From the IMG/VR virus record IMGVR_UViG_2718218168_000005: a stretch of 42,656 nt of DNA. One strand, given 5' to 3'. The notes under the pieces are model-generated. The model worked only from the letters and a program-made list of their open reading frames with translations. It was not told the DNA's origin and made no database searches. Below, one piece after another: positions 21,831-37,906 of this stretch. Position numbers and translations under genes: made by a program. Source of the DNA: a virus. Its lineage: Duplodnaviria; Heunggongvirae; Uroviricota; Caudoviricetes. Positions within the stretch are counted from its first letter, which is position 1. Every line of letters starts with the position of its first letter.

Positions 21831-22101
21831 GATGTTACCGTAGTATGTGAGTATCCATCGAATAGACACCAAGCCAAAAAGCTCCCGAAGGAGCCTTCAT
21901 TTTCACTTTTTTAAATCCAACGACAGACGGCTGGCATTTAAGTATTGTGAAATATTATCAAATGTAATCATCATTGATTTACAAAAGATACATTTTGCCC
22001 CGAAAGGATTCATGTCAGAAACATCAAAAGATGATGTTCTATACTGGGAACCATGACAACACGGGCATCTAAAGTGAATATGGTTTGTAATATTGTCTAC
22101 C

Positions 22102-22314
22102 TCAAAGCGCCACTACATGAACAGCGGCAGGACCTTTAGGTCCGTTCTCAATACCAAATTCAACTTCCTGATTCTCAGTTAATGTTTTGAAATCGTTGCT
22201 CTGAATTGCTGAGAAATGGACAAACACATCTTTGCTGCCATCTTTCGGCGTGATGAAACCAAAACCTTTTTCAGGGTTAAACCATTTCACTAAACCAGTC
22301 ATTTTGTTAGACAT
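22102..22314 (-). CDS. cspI: Cold shock protein CspI-like (70 aa)
   Basis: CspA-family motifs ([20 protein letters not shown]); Qin position. Confidence 0.9.
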
Positions 22315-22676
22315 AATTATTACCTTTTGAAGAAATTAGCCCTTGGGCAGAATGGTCCGAAAAAAAATATCAGAGAGAAAAACCAACAAGGAAATCTCAA
22401 GAGGTACAAATAATAAAATTATAACAATGACTGCTTCAGATAAATTTGTAACAAACCAGAACACCATTAACGCATGATTAACCACCCATAGCAAGGATTA
22501 CTTTTGTAAAGAAAAACACAGCAATGAAAGAATAGCTTTATTTATTAATAAAACGTGTCATTCTGATTAAGACCTTTTATCTTACCCTTAAGATTTCAGG
22601 AATTTTGGCTCATGGAAGAGTCCTTTTTATTTAAATTTTACATTCCGCGATGTAAATGTTCCGATTTAATATTACC

Positions 22677-24703: not shown

Positions 24704-24984
24704 GAGATTGTGGTGCTTTTTGTGGGAGTCATCCACTTACGCACTTTGTTTTGCGATGCCAGCAGTTAGCTTCTGCTGTGAAACTATTCATGCAGCAAAC
24801 CTGCACTTCACCACAATGGTTAGCATACTTTTCCTGATTAAGATTTTGCCAAATATGCTGGCCATTGTTTCATGTATTGGACCTCCTTACTTTTTATTAA
24901 AGAGATCCAATATTCACTACTCTGTCCGTATCTCTACTCAGGCATCAGCCTTCTTCGTTATCGTATACAGACGAGCGATGAATT

Positions 24985-25200
24985 TTAATCAGTAATGATG
25001 ACATTTACTGCTGCAGGACCTTTAGCACCACTCTCTATAGAGAAGGTAACCTTTTGACCTTCAAATAAGGTTCGATAATTATCATTCTGAATCGCAGAAA
25101 AATGCACAAACACATCTTTACTACCATCAACAGGAGAAATAAAGCCGAAACCTTTATCAGCGTTAAACCATTTTACTAAACCAGTCATTTTATTTGACAT
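24985..25200 (-). CDS. cspB: Cold shock protein CspB-like (71 aa)
   Basis: CspA-family motifs; divergent from cspF. Confidence 0.9.
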
Positions 25201-25510
25201 TCTACATTCCTTAACTTGAGCCTTTCGGCATAAATGGTTTGCATAACAGAAACGACTTCGTACTTAATTGGAGAGACTCAAAGAAGGAATAAGTGAATAA
25301 CACCTGAAATGAGAACTGCTTTAGTAAACTACTTCGTATATCGTCTGTTCTTCAAACCGACGCAGTCATTAACTCATAGTTGAACATATGAAGCAATGTT
25401 TATTTTAGACATCCAGCCACCTTCAATCCTATCAAAAAAGTAGTTTTCTCCAGGAACGTGTGTATGGTGCACCAGGTTATCAGTATTAAGGAGTTTTTCT
25501 GTCCCCTAAA

Positions 25511-26132: not shown

Positions 26133-26885
26133 TTATCTCGTCACCTTCCTCAATTGCGCTTCCGCGTATGCTTCTTCCTGCCAGCACTTTGTTACCAGTT
26201 TACCAATGACGTCCGCATACCCCTTATACCACTGATAATCGGTCAGGTCTGGTACCAGCTTCTGGACATGACGTCGTGCCAGCGTGGTCGGTAAACGACT
26301 AAACCGGTTTCCATTACAACGCCCACAAATCTTATATACCGGTACGCCATGAAACCGGGTTCTTTTTTCATCCAGAACAATCCCTTTACCCTTACACCCT
26401 CTGCACGCTGTGCTGGCTTCGCCCTTACCATGGCAATGCTGACATAGTTCCTTCACCCATTCTTCCTTGATTACAGATTCCCCGCGTCTGTAGTGTTTCA
26501 CCACTTCGCGCAATACATTATAAAATCCCGTACCTGAACAATGCTCACAGCGAGCCTTACTTGCCGCAGACCTGGAGTAATCAGCAAAGGCAAAACTCAC
26601 GAGGTAAGGAATAATCTGTAACCGGATTTCTTCACTCAATTTGTTCAATGTCGGGTTATCCAGTGCCATCGCGTAATTTAGCAGGCCTTCAATCGCAAAC
26701 TGAGGGTCCTGAACACCAACTTTTGCCAGAAATAAGGCCAACCCAAGTGGTGCTTTCGACTGCACCATCCCCTGCGCTGCCATTACATCCGTAATTGTTA
26801 AACAACCGGTGCCTGTCGCTGGAGCGTCATCGCTCAATTTTGGAGATTTTGGGGAGTAATATTTTGGTAAGGCTTCAAGGTTCAT
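26133..26885 (-). CDS. quuQ: Late-gene antiterminator Q-like protein (250 aa from MNLEALPKYY)
   Basis: Cys-rich C-terminal half (CEHCSGTG...CQHCHGKG...CRGCKGKG) typical of Q-family zinc-binding antiterminators; position upstream of the lysis genes. Confidence 0.75.
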   Translation of the reverse strand: MNLEALPKYYSPKSPKLSDDAPATGTGCLTITDVMAAQGMVQSKAPLGLALFLAKVGVQDPQFAIEGLLNYAMALDNPTLNKLSEEIRLQIIPYLVSFAFADYSRSAASKARCEHCSGTGFYNVLREVVKHYRRGESVIKEEWVKELCQHCHGKGEASTACRGCKGKGIVLDEKRTRFHGVPVYKICGRCNGNRFSRLPTTLARRHVQKLVPDLTDYQWYKGYADVIGKLVTKCWQEEAYAEAQLRKVTR

Positions 26886-26898
26886 GCTCGTTCTCCAC

Positions 26899-27948
26899 TT
26901 ACGCCAGTACGCCAATTGCCAGCGCGCGATCGATAAAACGAAATATCAGCTCCAGTTGGGAGCCATACTTATCTTCAAATGCCACTGTATCCGTATGCAG
27001 CTCGTTGTGATGCTTTCTGCACAAAGGCAACACAAAGAGATCATGTGCTTTTGTTCCCATTCCGCCCTGCCCGTGACCAATCAGATGATGCGGATCGTCG
27101 GCTGGCATACCGCAGCAAGCACACGGCTGTGTCTTAACCCAACGTGTGTATTTCTCCTTAACCCAGCGGCGACGTTTAGGCAGCTTCATGAAAGATTCCG
27201 GAGACTCTGGATCAACGGTGATGCTTACCACCGTCTTTTCCTGTGGTGATTTTTGTTGCTGGTGGGCGTAAGGCAACGGTGCAAGATTTTTTGTGCGTTG
27301 TTTCAATATGCTGGTGGCGGTCTGCTCTCCCGGTACGATGTCGCTTTCGCGGTACACCGAGCAGATTTTTTCCGCTGGTAATCCCAGCGAACGACGCGAT
27401 ACAGCCTCAGGTAGTGCATCCACCACCTGATTGCAGACCGTCCACCAGGATAATTCAGCCAAAGATAATTCCCGCTCCTGCGTACCGCTTATTGCGTGAC
27501 GGATGACGTCAATCACCCATGCTGTCAGATTTTGTTGAGCAAGCAGCTCCAGTGATTCCGATGTCTGGTCACGCAGTTGGTTGTCGCAGTGCCAGCACAA
27601 CACCATTGCGCCGGTACCATAACGGTGAATGACTGTTTCAGTGTGATGGTAATCGCCATTAGGCCACTGGCAGGATGTAACATGACGTAATAGCCAGTCG
27701 GACAATGCGCCAACGCCGCCAGCAGCACGAATCACCCGTTCGTTACTAAAAAACGGCAGCAATGTTTTGTCTTCCGCCAGCGGCTGGCGAACGGCAGGAA
27801 CGACTCCGGATGGCAGATTACGCATGCTTTTTGGTTCCGGTTCCACCAGCACTCGAGGATTATGAAATATCTGTATGGATTCACGGCCCGGCTTAAGGAC
27901 CACCAGCCCAAGCTCAGGCACCAGAACAGGTCTAAGTAATACCCGCAC
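26899..27948 (-). CDS. ydfU: DUF968-type prophage protein with C-terminal HNH-like Cys/His cluster (349 aa, GTG start)
   Basis: GTG at 27948..27946 gives 349 aa and lies 1 nt after the TAA of the upstream ORF; C-terminus QPCACCGMPADDPHHLIGHGQGGMGTKAHD. Confidence 0.65.
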   Translation of the reverse strand: MRVLLRPVLVPELGLVVLKPGRESIQIFHNPRVLVEPEPKSMRNLPSGVVPAVRQPLAEDKTLLPFFSNERVIRAAGGVGALSDWLLRHVTSCQWPNGDYHHTETVIHRYGTGAMVLCWHCDNQLRDQTSESLELLAQQNLTAWVIDVIRHAISGTQERELSLAELSWWTVCNQVVDALPEAVSRRSLGLPAEKICSVYRESDIVPGEQTATSILKQRTKNLAPLPYAHQQQKSPQEKTVVSITVDPESPESFMKLPKRRRWVKEKYTRWVKTQPCACCGMPADDPHHLIGHGQGGMGTKAHDLFVLPLCRKHHNELHTDTVAFEDKYGSQLELIFRFIDRALAIGVLA

Positions 27949-27949
27949 G

Positions 27950-28228
27950 TTACCTCCAGATCCGTTGCTGGAAAGTGCGGGACGCACGTGGTGGGCGTTC
28001 GGAATAAGGCAGCCTGACAGAGATTATCCAGTGCCGATAGTCGAGACTGAGAGCTTTCTTAACCTCGAACCCGCGCCTGCGGTAAGAATGAATCAGCCAT
28101 TCGGCCTGTTCTGCAGTGCATGGAGGGTGCTGGAACCATTCAGACTTGAATGCGTGAGAATACCGCCCGTGCGTGCAGGCAAGAACGGGCGAATTATCAG
28201 AATTGTAATATTTTGCGTTGCGTGCCAT
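27950..28228 (-). CDS. hypothetical protein (92 aa), translationally coupled to ydfU
   Basis: ORF MARNAKYYNSDNSPVLACTHGRYS...; stop codon adjacent to the ydfU GTG start; no family recognised. Confidence 0.5.
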   Translation of the reverse strand: MARNAKYYNSDNSPVLACTHGRYSHAFKSEWFQHPPCTAEQAEWLIHSYRRRGFEVKKALSLDYRHWIISVRLPYSERPPRASRTFQQRIWR

Positions 28229-28294
28229 CGGTTTTCTCCGGTGGCACGGTGTTACTCAGCGGGAGTTCAGCCCCGCGCAAGATTGTAGATGAGT

Positions 28295-28546
28295 TTATTC
28301 TCCTGAAAAAGCAGAAAAGCCAGCTTTTATTCCGATCTCTTTCAATGCCTGTAATGAAGTGACAAACTCACCTTCGCGCAAGATAAATCCGTCCGTGACC
28401 CGAGCATCCACAAAATTAATTAACGCAGCCCCATTCTTTCGCAAACACATAATGCGGTAATGACTAACAAGATTTCCATTTTCAACGCACACAGCATAGA
28501 GGCCATCTTCACAAAAAATTTTACGCAGTTCTTCGATGTTCATCAT
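28295..28546 (-). CDS. hypothetical protein (83 aa); probably the Rem ORF historically found beside relB-relE-hokD
   Basis: GGAAGGA SD upstream of ATG; first gene after the hokD terminator; the Rem assignment rests on length and position only. Confidence 0.55.
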   Translation of the reverse strand: MMNIEELRKIFCEDGLYAVCVENGNLVSHYRIMCLRKNGAALINFVDARVTDGFILREGEFVTSLQALKEIGIKAGFSAFSGE

Positions 28547-28674
28547 CAGAATCCTTCCGGATAATTAGCTCTCCCCTTTAAGGGACCATCCCTCTTATCC
28601 CTGCGCGCTACTTAAGTATTTTTGATTCTATTCCGGCACCGTCCAGAACTTCAAACGCGTTGAAAATAAAAACA

Positions 28675-28694
28675 AAAACCCGCCGAAGCGGGTT
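28675..28694 (-). terminator. Rho-independent terminator of the relB-relE-hokD operon
   Basis: Hairpin aacccgc-cgaa-gcgggtt followed by T-run on the minus strand. Confidence 0.7.
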
Positions 28695-28762
28695 AAGTGC
28701 GGGTGCGTTGAGGATGCCTGCCACATCAGAGGTGGCGAGGGATTTCTCCCCCGCCGGGTCTC

Positions 28763-30817: not shown

Positions 30818-32158
30818 TCAATCTTTTTTATCGGGATCAGGCTTCTTTTTAGGTAACTTCGGGGGCTTAACTTGCTGATGACTTTGCGTTCGGCGCGTAA
30901 GCCAGGGATGGTCAGCTTTAGGTTTAACATAGTATTTTGAGCGTAAATCAATACGGGCATTATCCACTCGTTCATGGACACTCTTTTCATCATCCAGTGG
31001 TATAGGCTCCGGGCCATCAACATACTTTTCCCAGCCCAGCGCTTTCCCGTCATACAGAACGTTAATTTCACCGTCAAAGTTCTCGCATACAGTAACAACC
31101 GAATGCCTAAGTCGATATCCCCGGCTCTCACTGCGTACCTGAAACGCACTGCTTTTGTACTGGAAAGTGAGATTTTTAGACAGAACGCGCTTCGCCTGTA
31201 GGCTGAAGATATAACCCAGTTCCTCTTCAGAATGGTGCACATCAAGATGAGCATTATCAGTAGTACGAGGCGACGTAGCGAACCGGTTGTTATAGGCTTC
31301 AATAAAGGTCGGCAACCATGCATTTGCTGTTTCAATATCACTGATATTCTGAAGCCGCATTTCTTTGACCAGCCTGTCCTGTAGTGTCTGATTGGCGCGC
31401 TCTACCCGCCCTTTTGCCTGCGGGCTGTTGGCATGGATTGGCTCGATGCCCAGTGTCTTTATCGCACGAGTGAACTGGGTCAGCTCACCTTCCCGCTCTG
31501 GGTTATTTACCCTGAATATACTGTGTCTATCAGAGTAGAGAGCGAGCGGTACGCCATGATCATTAAGGTAACCCCGGAGGGTTTCCATGTAAGCCCGGGT
31601 TGTTTCAGCAGGCACAAAACGCAACGCCATCAACGCACTGGTGGCATCATCAATGAAAACGATCAGTGTACATCTGGGGCCTCGATTTTCAAACCAGTCA
31701 TGAGGTGAGCCATCAATCTGGATCAGTTCACCGTAAGATGGTCGTCGCATGCGGCGTTGATATATACGGGCAATTTTACGACGGCGTTCACGCCATAACC
31801 CCTCTTCTATCATCCACTTTCTGAGAGTTTCAACGGATAAAGATAAACCGTGTATCTCGCGCAATTTTTCGCACGCAAACGTAGGTCCAAAATCAGCGTA
31901 ACGGCCTTTGAGGAGTGAAATTACTGTTGCTCTGAATTCAGTAGAAAAGGAATTATTAGGACGCTTTCCACGTCGGTGGGAAACCAGACCAGAAGGCCCT
32001 TCATTTCTATACCGTTGCACCAGACGTTTAACCTGCCGAATAGAAATGCCAATGCGTGCCGCAGCTTGTTCCTGAGTAATATGTCGATTAATTGACTCCT
32101 GAATAATCTGAAGTCGGTGGAGTTCCTTATGACTCATCGTAACAGTCTCTTTGATCAT
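30818..32158 (-). CDS. DDE transposase with rve (integrase core) domain and N-terminal HTH, IS481/IS1202-like (446 aa)
   Basis: Motifs IQIDGSPHDW, FIDDATS and ANSPQAKGRVERANQTLQ form a DDE triad; element boundaries not identified. Confidence 0.75.
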   Translation of the reverse strand: MIKETVTMSHKELHRLQIIQESINRHITQEQAAARIGISIRQVKRLVQRYRNEGPSGLVSHRRGKRPNNSFSTEFRATVISLLKGRYADFGPTFACEKLREIHGLSLSVETLRKWMIEEGLWRERRRKIARIYQRRMRRPSYGELIQIDGSPHDWFENRGPRCTLIVFIDDATSALMALRFVPAETTRAYMETLRGYLNDHGVPLALYSDRHSIFRVNNPEREGELTQFTRAIKTLGIEPIHANSPQAKGRVERANQTLQDRLVKEMRLQNISDIETANAWLPTFIEAYNNRFATSPRTTDNAHLDVHHSEEELGYIFSLQAKRVLSKNLTFQYKSSAFQVRSESRGYRLRHSVVTVCENFDGEINVLYDGKALGWEKYVDGPEPIPLDDEKSVHERVDNARIDLRSKYYVKPKADHPWLTRRTQSHQQVKPPKLPKKKPDPDKKD

Positions 32159-32186: not shown

Positions 32187-32492
32187 ACATTTTAGAATGG
32201 TTCAAAGGGGACATTACAGCTTGGTGTTAACAATAGCCTGCTTCTCCGTGCCTTTCGGCACGTAAGAGGCTAACCTACATGTGTCTAGCATGAAATTGGC
32301 CTCAGATTAATGTTAAGCGTCTTGCAGGACGCGTAATGTTAACTGGGGCTTTTCTCTATCTGCCGTTGGTGTCCATGCCCGAGGCAGATAGCCTCAAGCA
32401 CCCGCAGTCATTCTACTTAACTAAGATTTCCCCGCAAACCGTTTTTGTCCAGCACAGTAAATATCCAACTAAACCAATGGAGTTCGCTGTAT

Positions 32493-37849: not shown

Positions 37850-37906
37850 TTTCTGGTGACGTTTGGCGGTATCAGTTTTACTCCGTGACTGCTCTGCCGC
37901 CCTTTT
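37850..37906 (+). ncRNA. dicF: DicF small regulatory RNA (ftsZ-targeting sRNA) with intrinsic terminator
   Basis: Sequence TTTCTGGTGACGTTTGGCGGTATCAGTTTTACTCCGTGACTGCTCTGCCGCCCTTTTT matches recalled DicF; ends are approximate. Confidence 0.85.

Follow-up and report, generated by a model that had tools for sequence, protein, structure and literature searches.

Organization of the locus

The window analyzed here is the whole 42,656-nucleotide (nt) stretch of IMG/VR record IMGVR_UViG_2718218168_000005, a virus of the Caudoviricetes, and our subject is a small open reading frame (ORF) of 92 codons, here called orf92, that lies between rem and ydfU in the distal nin region of this Qin-type prophage. 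The genes rem, orf92, ydfU and ydfT are all on the minus strand (Table 1). An earlier interpretation made from the letters alone (hereafter the sequence-only reading) had described a 92-amino-acid (aa) frame at this position whose TAA stands one base before the GTG of ydfU, and this we confirm, adding the strand, which it left unstated. Beyond what it proposed, orf92 is absent from the K-12 reference annotation, is a member of a wider family and has a leader of its own. As judged by comparison of alleles and by structure prediction, it is a genuine protein gene. Considered as a whole, an account in which rem and orf92 are both real genes, orf92 is translationally coupled to ydfU, a conserved leader gates the operon and rem is facultative is in our judgment likely to be right.

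Window positions 27850-28700 are 100% identical to Escherichia coli K-12 MG1655, in which the annotated genes of this part of the cryptic prophage Qin are relB, relE, hokD, rem, ydfU and ydfT, the last encoding a Q antiterminator. Because rem is the gene annotated in the identical K-12 interval, the 83-aa gene upstream of orf92, which the sequence-only reading had suspected to be Rem and had credited with a good ribosome-binding site, is rem itself, and its Shine-Dalgarno (SD) sequence GGAAGGA does stand 5 nt before the ATG. When the K-12 annotation was consulted, as that reading had suggested, NC_000913.3 was found to carry zero features between ydfU (1643255-1644304) and rem (1644651-1644902), and the NCBI PGAP annotation of another MG1655 assembly was found to call a 92-aa hypothetical protein, WP_012304870.1, exactly at orf92. 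A literature search for WP_012304870 found nothing. Since orf92 lies in it, the 346-bp "intergenic" region between rem and ydfU of K-12, cited as a strong Rho-dependent terminator, is mostly coding. Of 5426 complete E. coli genomes, 4342 (~80%) contain a match to an 851-bp region that takes in rem, orf92 and the beginning of ydfU, with up to 7 copies per genome. The best-studied of all bacterial genomes thus has a reference annotation that omits a conserved gene under purifying selection.

Table 1. Features of the rem-orf92-ydfU region, in window coordinates
Feature	Position	Strand	Remarks
hokD intrinsic terminator	28677..28694	-	Stem + T-run, AACCCGCTTCGGCGGGTT + TTTGTTTTTA; upstream limit of the rem/orf92 region
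Promoter-like site 5' of rem	28625..28654	-	TTGAAG-18-TAGAAT; weak, predicted; 9/12 match
rem, 83 aa	28295..28546	-	Identical to K-12 b1561; PHROG 340; PF27490 on homologues; SD at 28558-28552
orf92 promoter-like element (putative)	28282..28309	-	-35 TTTTCA 28309-28304, 16-nt spacer, -10 TACAAT 28287-28282
Leader hairpin 1	28259..28276	-	GCGGGG-CUGAAC-UCCCGC; compensatory changes, constant loop
Leader hairpin 2	28221..28248	-	Covers start codon, codons 2-3 and half of the SD
orf92, 92 aa	27950..28228	-	K-12 1644306-1644584 complement; ATG 28228-28226, TAA 27952-27950; own SD GGAG 28239-28236, 7 nt from ATG; residues 1-26 variable extension, 27-92 PHROG 1212 domain
Coupling junction	27946..27957	-	GGAGG 27957-27953 (codons Trp91-Arg92), TAA, C 27949, GTG 27948-27946
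ydfU, 349 aa	26899..27948	-	DUF968 His-Me/HNH nuclease domain in C-terminal half
ydfT/quuQ, Q antiterminator	26133..26885	-	Last gene of the putative operon

A protein-coding gene of a narrow prophage family

Close relatives of orf92 (63-100% identity, in Escherichia and Shigella only) retain the reading frame across indels of 2 and 3 codons, and among seven diverged alleles the ratio of nonsynonymous to synonymous substitution rates (dN/dS, pairwise Nei-Gojobori) is 0.14-0.37 at dS values of 0.28-0.93. The corresponding ratio of proportions, pN/pS, is 0.77 over residues 1-26, 0.24 over residues 27-66 and 0.10 over residues 67-92, although the lower pS of the C-terminal third (0.32 vs 0.57) could partly reflect recombination and not constraint, and to that extent tells against us. 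In the AlphaFold2 model, the predicted local distance difference test (pLDDT) exceeds 90 for roughly residues 31-70, residues 1-23 are disordered, and the order of elements is a strand (30-33), a helix (39-52), two further strands (55-60 and 67-73) and a less confident C-terminal helix (84-91). The alleles and the model together show the predicted product to consist of a disordered, poorly constrained N-terminal extension of 26 residues followed by a domain of 66 residues, beta-alpha-beta-beta in order, whose C-terminal tail is basic.

That domain has a family of its own. Residues 27-92 match positions 1-66 of the 66 positions of PHROG 1212 (E 1.7e-35), and a profile search returned 527 relatives, all of them unnamed and without a Pfam domain. 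Homologues of 66-69 aa and about 40% identity are found in Gifsy-2, mEp237, SPN3UB, PY54, phiES15 and in Klebsiella, Hafnia, Edwardsiella and Erwinia phages, and the residues invariant across the family are, in orf92 numbering, T38, Y49, L60, D63, W67, L73 and W91. An exhaustive hidden Markov model search of 1.84 billion representative proteins gave only 105 clusters and no informative fusions; the profile searches thus show PHROG 1212 to be a small, narrow family of Enterobacteriaceae prophages. Its members are located in the nin regions of temperate phages beside recombination and nuclease genes, and they come in two forms. The long form of Escherichia, to which orf92 belongs, has 24-26 extra N-terminal residues, comes first behind the leader and in every case stands 5' of the DUF968 gene ydfU, whereas the short form lies 3' of a DUF1367 gene and 5' of NinG, YbcO or RusA.

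It could be argued that only the act of translating the 92-aa frame matters, orf92 being a regulatory leader ORF whose peptide has no function. The near-neutral evolution of its first 26 codons, the constraint imposed on codons 2-3 by hairpin 2 and on the last two codons by their use as an SD, and the variability of the downstream partner gene would all suit such a proposal. Residues 27-92, however, are not merely under purifying selection but have been kept as protein, with invariant residues and a confident fold, across genera, and at short-form loci the small gene is internal to the operon and does not occupy a leader position. We consider a functionless peptide improbable, and prefer a functional orf92 protein.

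Probable coupling of orf92 to the downstream nuclease gene

The sequence-only reading had taken the spacing of stop and start to suggest coupled translation, and the anatomy of the junction goes considerably further in this direction. The last two sense codons of orf92, TGG AGG, supply a GGAGG that is separated by 4 nt (27952-27949) from the GTG of ydfU. In a survey of 142 junctions, 103 of them at Escherichia long-form loci, the string TGG-AGG-TAA-N-GTG occurs in 102 of these 103, which argues that the arrangement of orf92 and ydfU is not a matter of chance. Short forms typically end in TGG-GGG-TGA-NN-ATG, and most short-form loci keep this 2-nt version, so that the junction can be written in general form as UGG-(A/G)GG-stop-N1-2-start. 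The codons themselves are unusual for their position: the final Arg is encoded by the rare AGG in 34/35 unique genes, as against 62/625 internal Arg codons, and the final Gly by GGG in 23/29, as against 29/116 internal Gly codons. An invariant penultimate Trp and a rare AGG or GGG codon thereby spell GGAGG or GGGGG, the SD of the downstream gene.

What follows this junction differs between the two forms. The gene 3' of the long form is the DUF968 gene ydfU at every locus examined, and that 3' of the short form (35 loci) encodes NinG in 18 cases, YbcO/DUF1364 in 10, RusA in 3, a Dcm methylase in 1 and other proteins in 3; NinG, YbcO and YdfU are all proteins of the His-Me/HNH type. In the orf92 family the C-terminus of a protein, Trp-Arg or Trp-Gly in rare codons, would thus also serve the following gene as its ribosome-binding site, even when the nuclease is swapped. 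Because the junction is stereotyped and the last two sense codons form the SD of the nuclease gene, translational coupling is well supported, and from this anatomy and its conservation we think it very probable that translation of ydfU is coupled to that of orf92. Ribosomes completing orf92 at UGG-AGG-UAA would reinitiate one base further on, at the GUG of ydfU, with the Trp-Arg codons serving as SD, and synthesis of YdfU would therefore follow translation of orf92.

A conserved two-hairpin leader

When loci that differ in the genes preceding orf92 were aligned over the DNA 5' of it, a conserved leader became apparent, located at window positions 28217-28290 on the minus strand and composed of a -10-like hexamer, hairpin 1 and hairpin 2. 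In hairpin 1 the stem is highly variable (GCCAG/CUGGC, CUGG/CCAG, ACGG/CCGU, UGUCAG/CUGACA, UGCCG/CGGCA, GCGAG/CUCGC and CAUAGG/CCUAUG were all seen), 5 of its 6 pairs having changed on both sides with pairing kept, and the loop contains an invariant CUGAAC, usually as YCUGAACAA. Hairpin 2, with z-scores of -2.5 to -4.5, takes into its stem the U and G of the orf92 AUG (the A being bulged) together with codons 2-3 and one half of the SD; at least two AUG bases are paired in the minimum-free-energy fold of 57/59 unique leaders. Here 97% of cells are paired, again with compensatory changes, one of which alters codon 2 (GCG to ACG, together with GCGCCA to GCGUCA).

Over the whole leader, paired cells amount to 90.7% in the 26-sequence alignment and 90.7-91.3% over this and a second alignment of 47 distinct rows, as compared with 20-40% when partners are slid, and the covariation score is 0.370 in the former, as compared with 0.03-0.07 in its slid controls, and 0.36-0.37 over the two, as compared with 0.03-0.08. 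A covariance model was built from the 26 sequences; the 47 distinct rows aligned to it agree, but were fitted to the model and so lean toward its structure. This model gives exactly one match per locus in 57/62 sources, the match in the window being 28217-28279 (52.6 bits). It is the covariation among aligned leaders that shows the predicted structure. Rfam has no match in 27900-28750, either at the gathering threshold or at E <= 1, and no occurrence of the leader motif sequences was found in a literature search.

In 79/79 unique upstream contexts, 5-6 nt separate the end of the -10-like hexamer from the stem of hairpin 1, and since it is fixed just before the stem, hairpin 1 is probably 5'-terminal in the transcript. 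In several other genera the promoter is near-consensus (TTGACT-N18-CATAAT).

Two familiar interpretations of hairpin 1, as a boxB/nut site of lambda/P22 and as a LexA box, were rejected by inspection, its arms being variable and its loop too long. A nut site would show a boxA and then a 5-bp stem with a GNRA-like pentaloop, just downstream of pL or pR; here the loop has 6 or 9 nt (CUGAAC or YCUGAACAA), no boxA was seen and the position is in the nin region.

The leader is present in at least six genera: Escherichia, Salmonella (Gifsy-1/-2), Klebsiella, Citrobacter, Enterobacter and Kluyvera. In Gifsy-1/-2, mEp237, SPN3UB and Klebsiella phages it heads an operon of DUF1367 (Orf/NinB-like), the 66-aa gene, a nuclease gene and Q, and elsewhere it heads operons of DUF1367, YbcO and Q from which the small gene is missing. 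Loci with the leader before DUF1367, then YbcO or NinG, then Q, sometimes lacking a PHROG 1212 gene, include those that we label L175, L185, L156, L191, L198 and L084 (positions 2308-2412, Gifsy-2). Given that it heads operons devoid of a PHROG 1212 gene, the leader belongs to the operon and not to the small protein.

From these arrangements the long form of Escherichia would seem to have been derived by loss of DUF1367. The 66-aa domain would thereby have become joined, through a linker that evolves almost neutrally, to what remained in front of it, namely the leader and the first codons (Met-Ala-His/Gln/Arg), which its structure constrains. An apparent intermediate is Citrobacter phage Chris1 (L088:2280-2616), where a remnant ORF of 29 aa stands between the leader and the 66-aa gene, and in two further loci (L124 and L136) versions of 75-77 aa lie directly behind the leader. 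Together, the architectures of Chris1, L124 and L136 suggest that long forms have arisen more than once by loss of DUF1367.

Alternatively, the conserved sequence before orf92 might act as DNA, either as an operator or as a recombination linker at the boundary of a mosaic module. The leader does lie exactly at the mosaic junction, the upstream modules being exchanged, the endpoint of the rem deletion in the relative L017 (see below) falls at it, and inverted repeats can bind proteins. Its pattern of conservation, however, with arms that vary with compensation around an invariant central loop, is the opposite of that of a protein operator. G-U pairs, moreover, are tolerated on the sense strand only, and hairpin 2 pairs specifically with the AUG and the SD even where a compensatory change costs a change of codon 2. 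A DNA element thus seems quite improbable to us, and in what follows the leader is treated as RNA.

rem is a facultative neighbor

The sequence-only reading had joined rem, orf92 and ydfU into a three-gene unit directly upstream of Q. The pair of orf92 and ydfU, with ydfT next, stands; rem as a fixed member is not supported, orf92-ydfU being found without it, a promoter-like element and the leader lying between, and ydfU but not rem rising in published arrays under impaired Rho (see below). Rem is a conserved protein (63-100% identity, with an in-frame indel of 4 codons) that matches PHROG 340, and clusters of its homologues carry PF27490 "Rem", a recent Pfam family. Only prophages and phages of Escherichia have the gene. 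Seven loci were retrieved for two diverged homologues of Rem, and each of them shows the order hok, rem, a gap of 66-69 nt, the 92-aa gene, DUF968, RusA and, where called, a Q-type antiterminator. Other Escherichia loci have orf92-ydfU behind hok, ParDE or unrelated genes, and at rem-less loci the same terminator as that after hokD stands directly before the orf92 leader.

The clearest case is L017, an IMG/VR relative in which, by comparison of its positions 326-431 with window positions 28282-28654, rem is precisely missing, so that the orf92 leader follows directly on the promoter-like element with TAGAAT from the rem side, the point of fusion being a short AAT repeat. At this junction rem behaves like a cassette that can be inserted or deleted between duplicated -10-like elements. 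Because orf92-ydfU occur without rem and L017 has lost it precisely, we regard orf92-ydfU as the fixed pair; on the loci compared, rem is an optional cassette, specific to Escherichia, that has been inserted behind the hok terminator and in front of the orf92 leader. The AlphaFold2 model of Rem is poor (beta-rich, pLDDT 55), so that fold and profile searches with it are meaningless.

Two small adjacent genes in the vicinity of the hokD and relBE toxin systems invite the suggestion that Rem and the 92-aa protein are a toxin-antitoxin pair, the more so as phage record ON470583 labels the 92-aa gene "toxin to Rem" and as Rem has a faint match to SocB_toxin (E 0.0099, 14.9 bits vs a cutoff of 210), which was its only, sub-threshold match in NCBIfam, PADLOC and a copy of Pfam that lacks the PF27490 model. 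However, orf92 is widespread without rem, not only in the Escherichia contexts just named but also behind DUF1367 in other genera, and the very record that bears the label has no rem gene adjoining the 92-aa gene. The 66 nt between rem and orf92 hold the promoter-like element and the structured leader, no toxin or antitoxin match was obtained in Pfam, NCBIfam and PADLOC, and the phrase "toxin to Rem" was not found in this sense in a literature search. A type II module, whose two genes should obligately co-occur, was rejected in view of the many contexts in which orf92 lacks rem, and we hold a toxin-antitoxin pair to be very unlikely.

ydfU and the orf92 operon

ydfU, which the sequence-only reading had called DUF968 and HNH-like, matches PF06147 (DUF968) with 254.9 bits (gathering cutoff 27.8) and PHROG 96, HNH endonuclease. 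DUF968 and DUF1364 make up group 7 in the classification of His-Me finger nucleases. A literature search found no biochemical study of YdfU, which by its profile matches is a predicted DUF968/His-Me finger nuclease. When the Qin arrangement was examined as a DUF1367-HNH fusion, no similarity to DUF1367 was found in the N-terminal half of YdfU. The comparisons place orf92 at the head of a putative operon in which ydfU and Q follow, with rusA between these two at other loci.

That the 92-aa frame might be no separate gene but the 5' portion of a longer ydfU, by an earlier start or by a frameshift fusion, or else a chance ORF, the outcome that the sequence-only reading had named as its refutation, is hardly credible: the ydfU frame does stay open for 13 more codons to GTG 27987, overlapping the end of orf92 by 38 nt, and a plus-strand ORF of 137 aa (window 27875-28288) does span all of orf92, but GTG 27987 has no SD and lies in C-rich sequence, K-12, PGAP and the PHROG 96 profile all start ydfU at 27948, sequence inspection revealed no slippery heptamer in the orf92/ydfU overlap, and PHROG 1212 genes precede unrelated nucleases and not only ydfU. 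The antisense ORF is probably a shadow ORF, because most of the diverged alleles carry stops in it and no allele has one in the sense frame. Both the longer ydfU and the antisense ORF were rejected.

A possible role of the orf92 protein

The sequence-only reading had assigned no function to either small protein, and family, fold and profile searches gave none. For orf92, scans of Pfam, NCBIfam and PADLOC yielded no match (in Pfam not even at E <= 1, NinF and the Nin families included); in a Foldseek search of the PDB the best E-value was 0.35, and the R3H, SPOR and RRM-like folds that it matched are noise such as a small alpha/beta domain will produce; searching the sequences of the PDB by profile gave nothing; and a fold search of BFVD gave a sole, near-significant match, which was a homologue, QD1 of N15.

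Such leads as there are consist of its constant place between an Orf-like mediator and a junction nuclease, its small alpha/beta fold with a basic tail, and a likeness to small nucleic-acid-binding domains that is non-significant. They allow the speculation, which we regard as doubtful, that orf92 protein is a small nucleic-acid-binding accessory of the recombination/junction-nuclease module. We place no more trust in it than this because the partner nuclease varies and because leader and protein each occur without the other. Equivalence to NinF is contradicted by Erwinia phage 59, which has both a family member and NinF.

A possible Rho-sensitive checkpoint ahead of Q

The terminator 5' of ydfU has been ranked among the strongest Rho-dependent terminators of K-12 (PMC9160355). 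In the arrays of that study (supplementary table), the log2 change of ydfU was +2.36 in nusG G146D, +1.95 in V160N, +1.4 in L158Q, +2.77 in rho N340S and +1.76 with bicyclomycin, and that of rem, in the same order, +0.54, +0.41, +0.08, -0.52 and +0.04 (PMC9160355). Since ydfU rises and rem does not, the Rho-sensitive step lies in the stretch bounded by the probes for these two genes, which is where the leader and orf92 are found. C>G bubbles occur on the sense strand of orf92 at two places (about 28280-28110 and 28030-27960), and the sense strand of rem is G-rich.

These observations fit a model in which the leader is a start-site lock combined with a Rho-dependent block ahead of ydfU and Q, a function that we consider possible, if not quite probable. 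Hairpin 2 would hide the SD and AUG, such that orf92 would normally be poorly translated; Rho could then load onto the naked C-rich orf92 RNA and terminate transcription before ydfU and Q, and the nuclease and the late-gene activator would thereby remain silent in the lysogen. The block could conceivably be released by a factor recognizing the CUGAAC loop, or by antiterminated read-through. Once orf92 is translated, its built-in SD would hand the ribosomes over to ydfU.

A more specific form of this model, which we put forward only tentatively, is that the promoter-proximal two-hairpin leader is an undescribed cis-regulatory RNA gating a recombination-nuclease/Q operon, that its CUGAAC(AA) loop docks the releasing factor, and that orf92 passes the decision on to ydfU by way of its built-in SD.

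Several points weigh against our account. Three of its elements are putative: the coupling, the promoter and the entry site of Rho. The -35 hexamer of Qin, TTTTCA, is poor, and a simple scan of the region finds promoter-like sites no more numerous than in shuffled sequences. Leader and protein are not obligately linked, each being found without the other: the PHROG 1212 protein occurs without the leader in PY54 and in Hafnia, Edwardsiella and Erwinia phages. The varying family of the partner nuclease argues against a specific protein-protein partnership, and the fold and profile searches with orf92 yield no functional hint.

Taken together, we argue that orf92 is an ordinary but real nin-region gene, peculiar chiefly in being left out of the K-12 reference and in carrying the SD of ydfU in its own last codons, and that the conserved, covarying leader, which plausibly gates the nuclease-Q operon, is the more interesting result. 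It suggests that many prophages have a post-initiation checkpoint before the late-gene activator Q, Gifsy-1/-2 among them and also the PPompW prophages in records of Stx2a phages. If this were true, the checkpoint would bear on the silence of prophages and on their awakening by Rho inhibition.

Other features of the window and its relatives

The window as such is not K-12 DNA: an IS1202-like ISEsa1 transposase gene that is absent from K-12 lies at 30818-32158 (minus strand) between flxA and ydfW, and just past it Rfam identifies a sok antitoxin RNA (104 bits, 32232-32403, minus strand), which implies a second hok/sok locus near these positions. Rfam also finds cspA-type thermoregulator leaders on the minus strand at 22075-22460 and 24938-25361 (the latter probably of cspB, from K-12 gene order) and DicF RNA on the plus strand at 37851-37902, as expected for Qin. 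Among the relatives, one contig (L110, JAGZPX010000007.1), binned as a metagenome-assembled genome of Veillonella parvula, carries this module of Escherichia prophages, its protein being 91% identical to that of orf92, and is probably a binning contaminant.

Comparison with known systems

With respect to its neighbors, rem is identical in sequence to K-12 b1561 and thus an already known gene, and the nearest named counterparts of orf92 are STM1021.1n of Gifsy-2, mEp237_051, ORF47 of PY54, phiES15_017 and Orf QD1 of N15. These PHROG 1212 relatives share 36-47% identity with orf92, the same position in the nin region and the same stop/start junction. Small ORFs between the replication genes and Q are familiar from lambda and P22 (ninD, ninE, ninF, ninH and ninX-Z), and like orf92 they are packed against the recombination genes orf/ninB and rap/ninG.

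The classical examples of termination-reinitiation coupling are trpE-trpD and trpB-trpA. The orf92-ydfU junction resembles them in its stop-start spacing of 1-2 nt and in having the SD within the end of the upstream cistron; it differs in that it is known from anatomy and comparison alone, and in that its SD is made from an invariant C-terminal Trp and a rare Arg or Gly codon. Similarly, leaders that combine start-site occlusion with Rho-dependent polarity are a known type, as is the silencing of prophage genes by Rho. The orf92 leader is like these in that hairpin 2 lies over the SD and AUG, a C-rich ORF follows on its 3' side and a strong Rho-dependent terminator is reported before ydfU, and it is unlike them in possessing hairpin 1, which with its constant CUGAAC(AA) loop is matched by nothing in Rfam.

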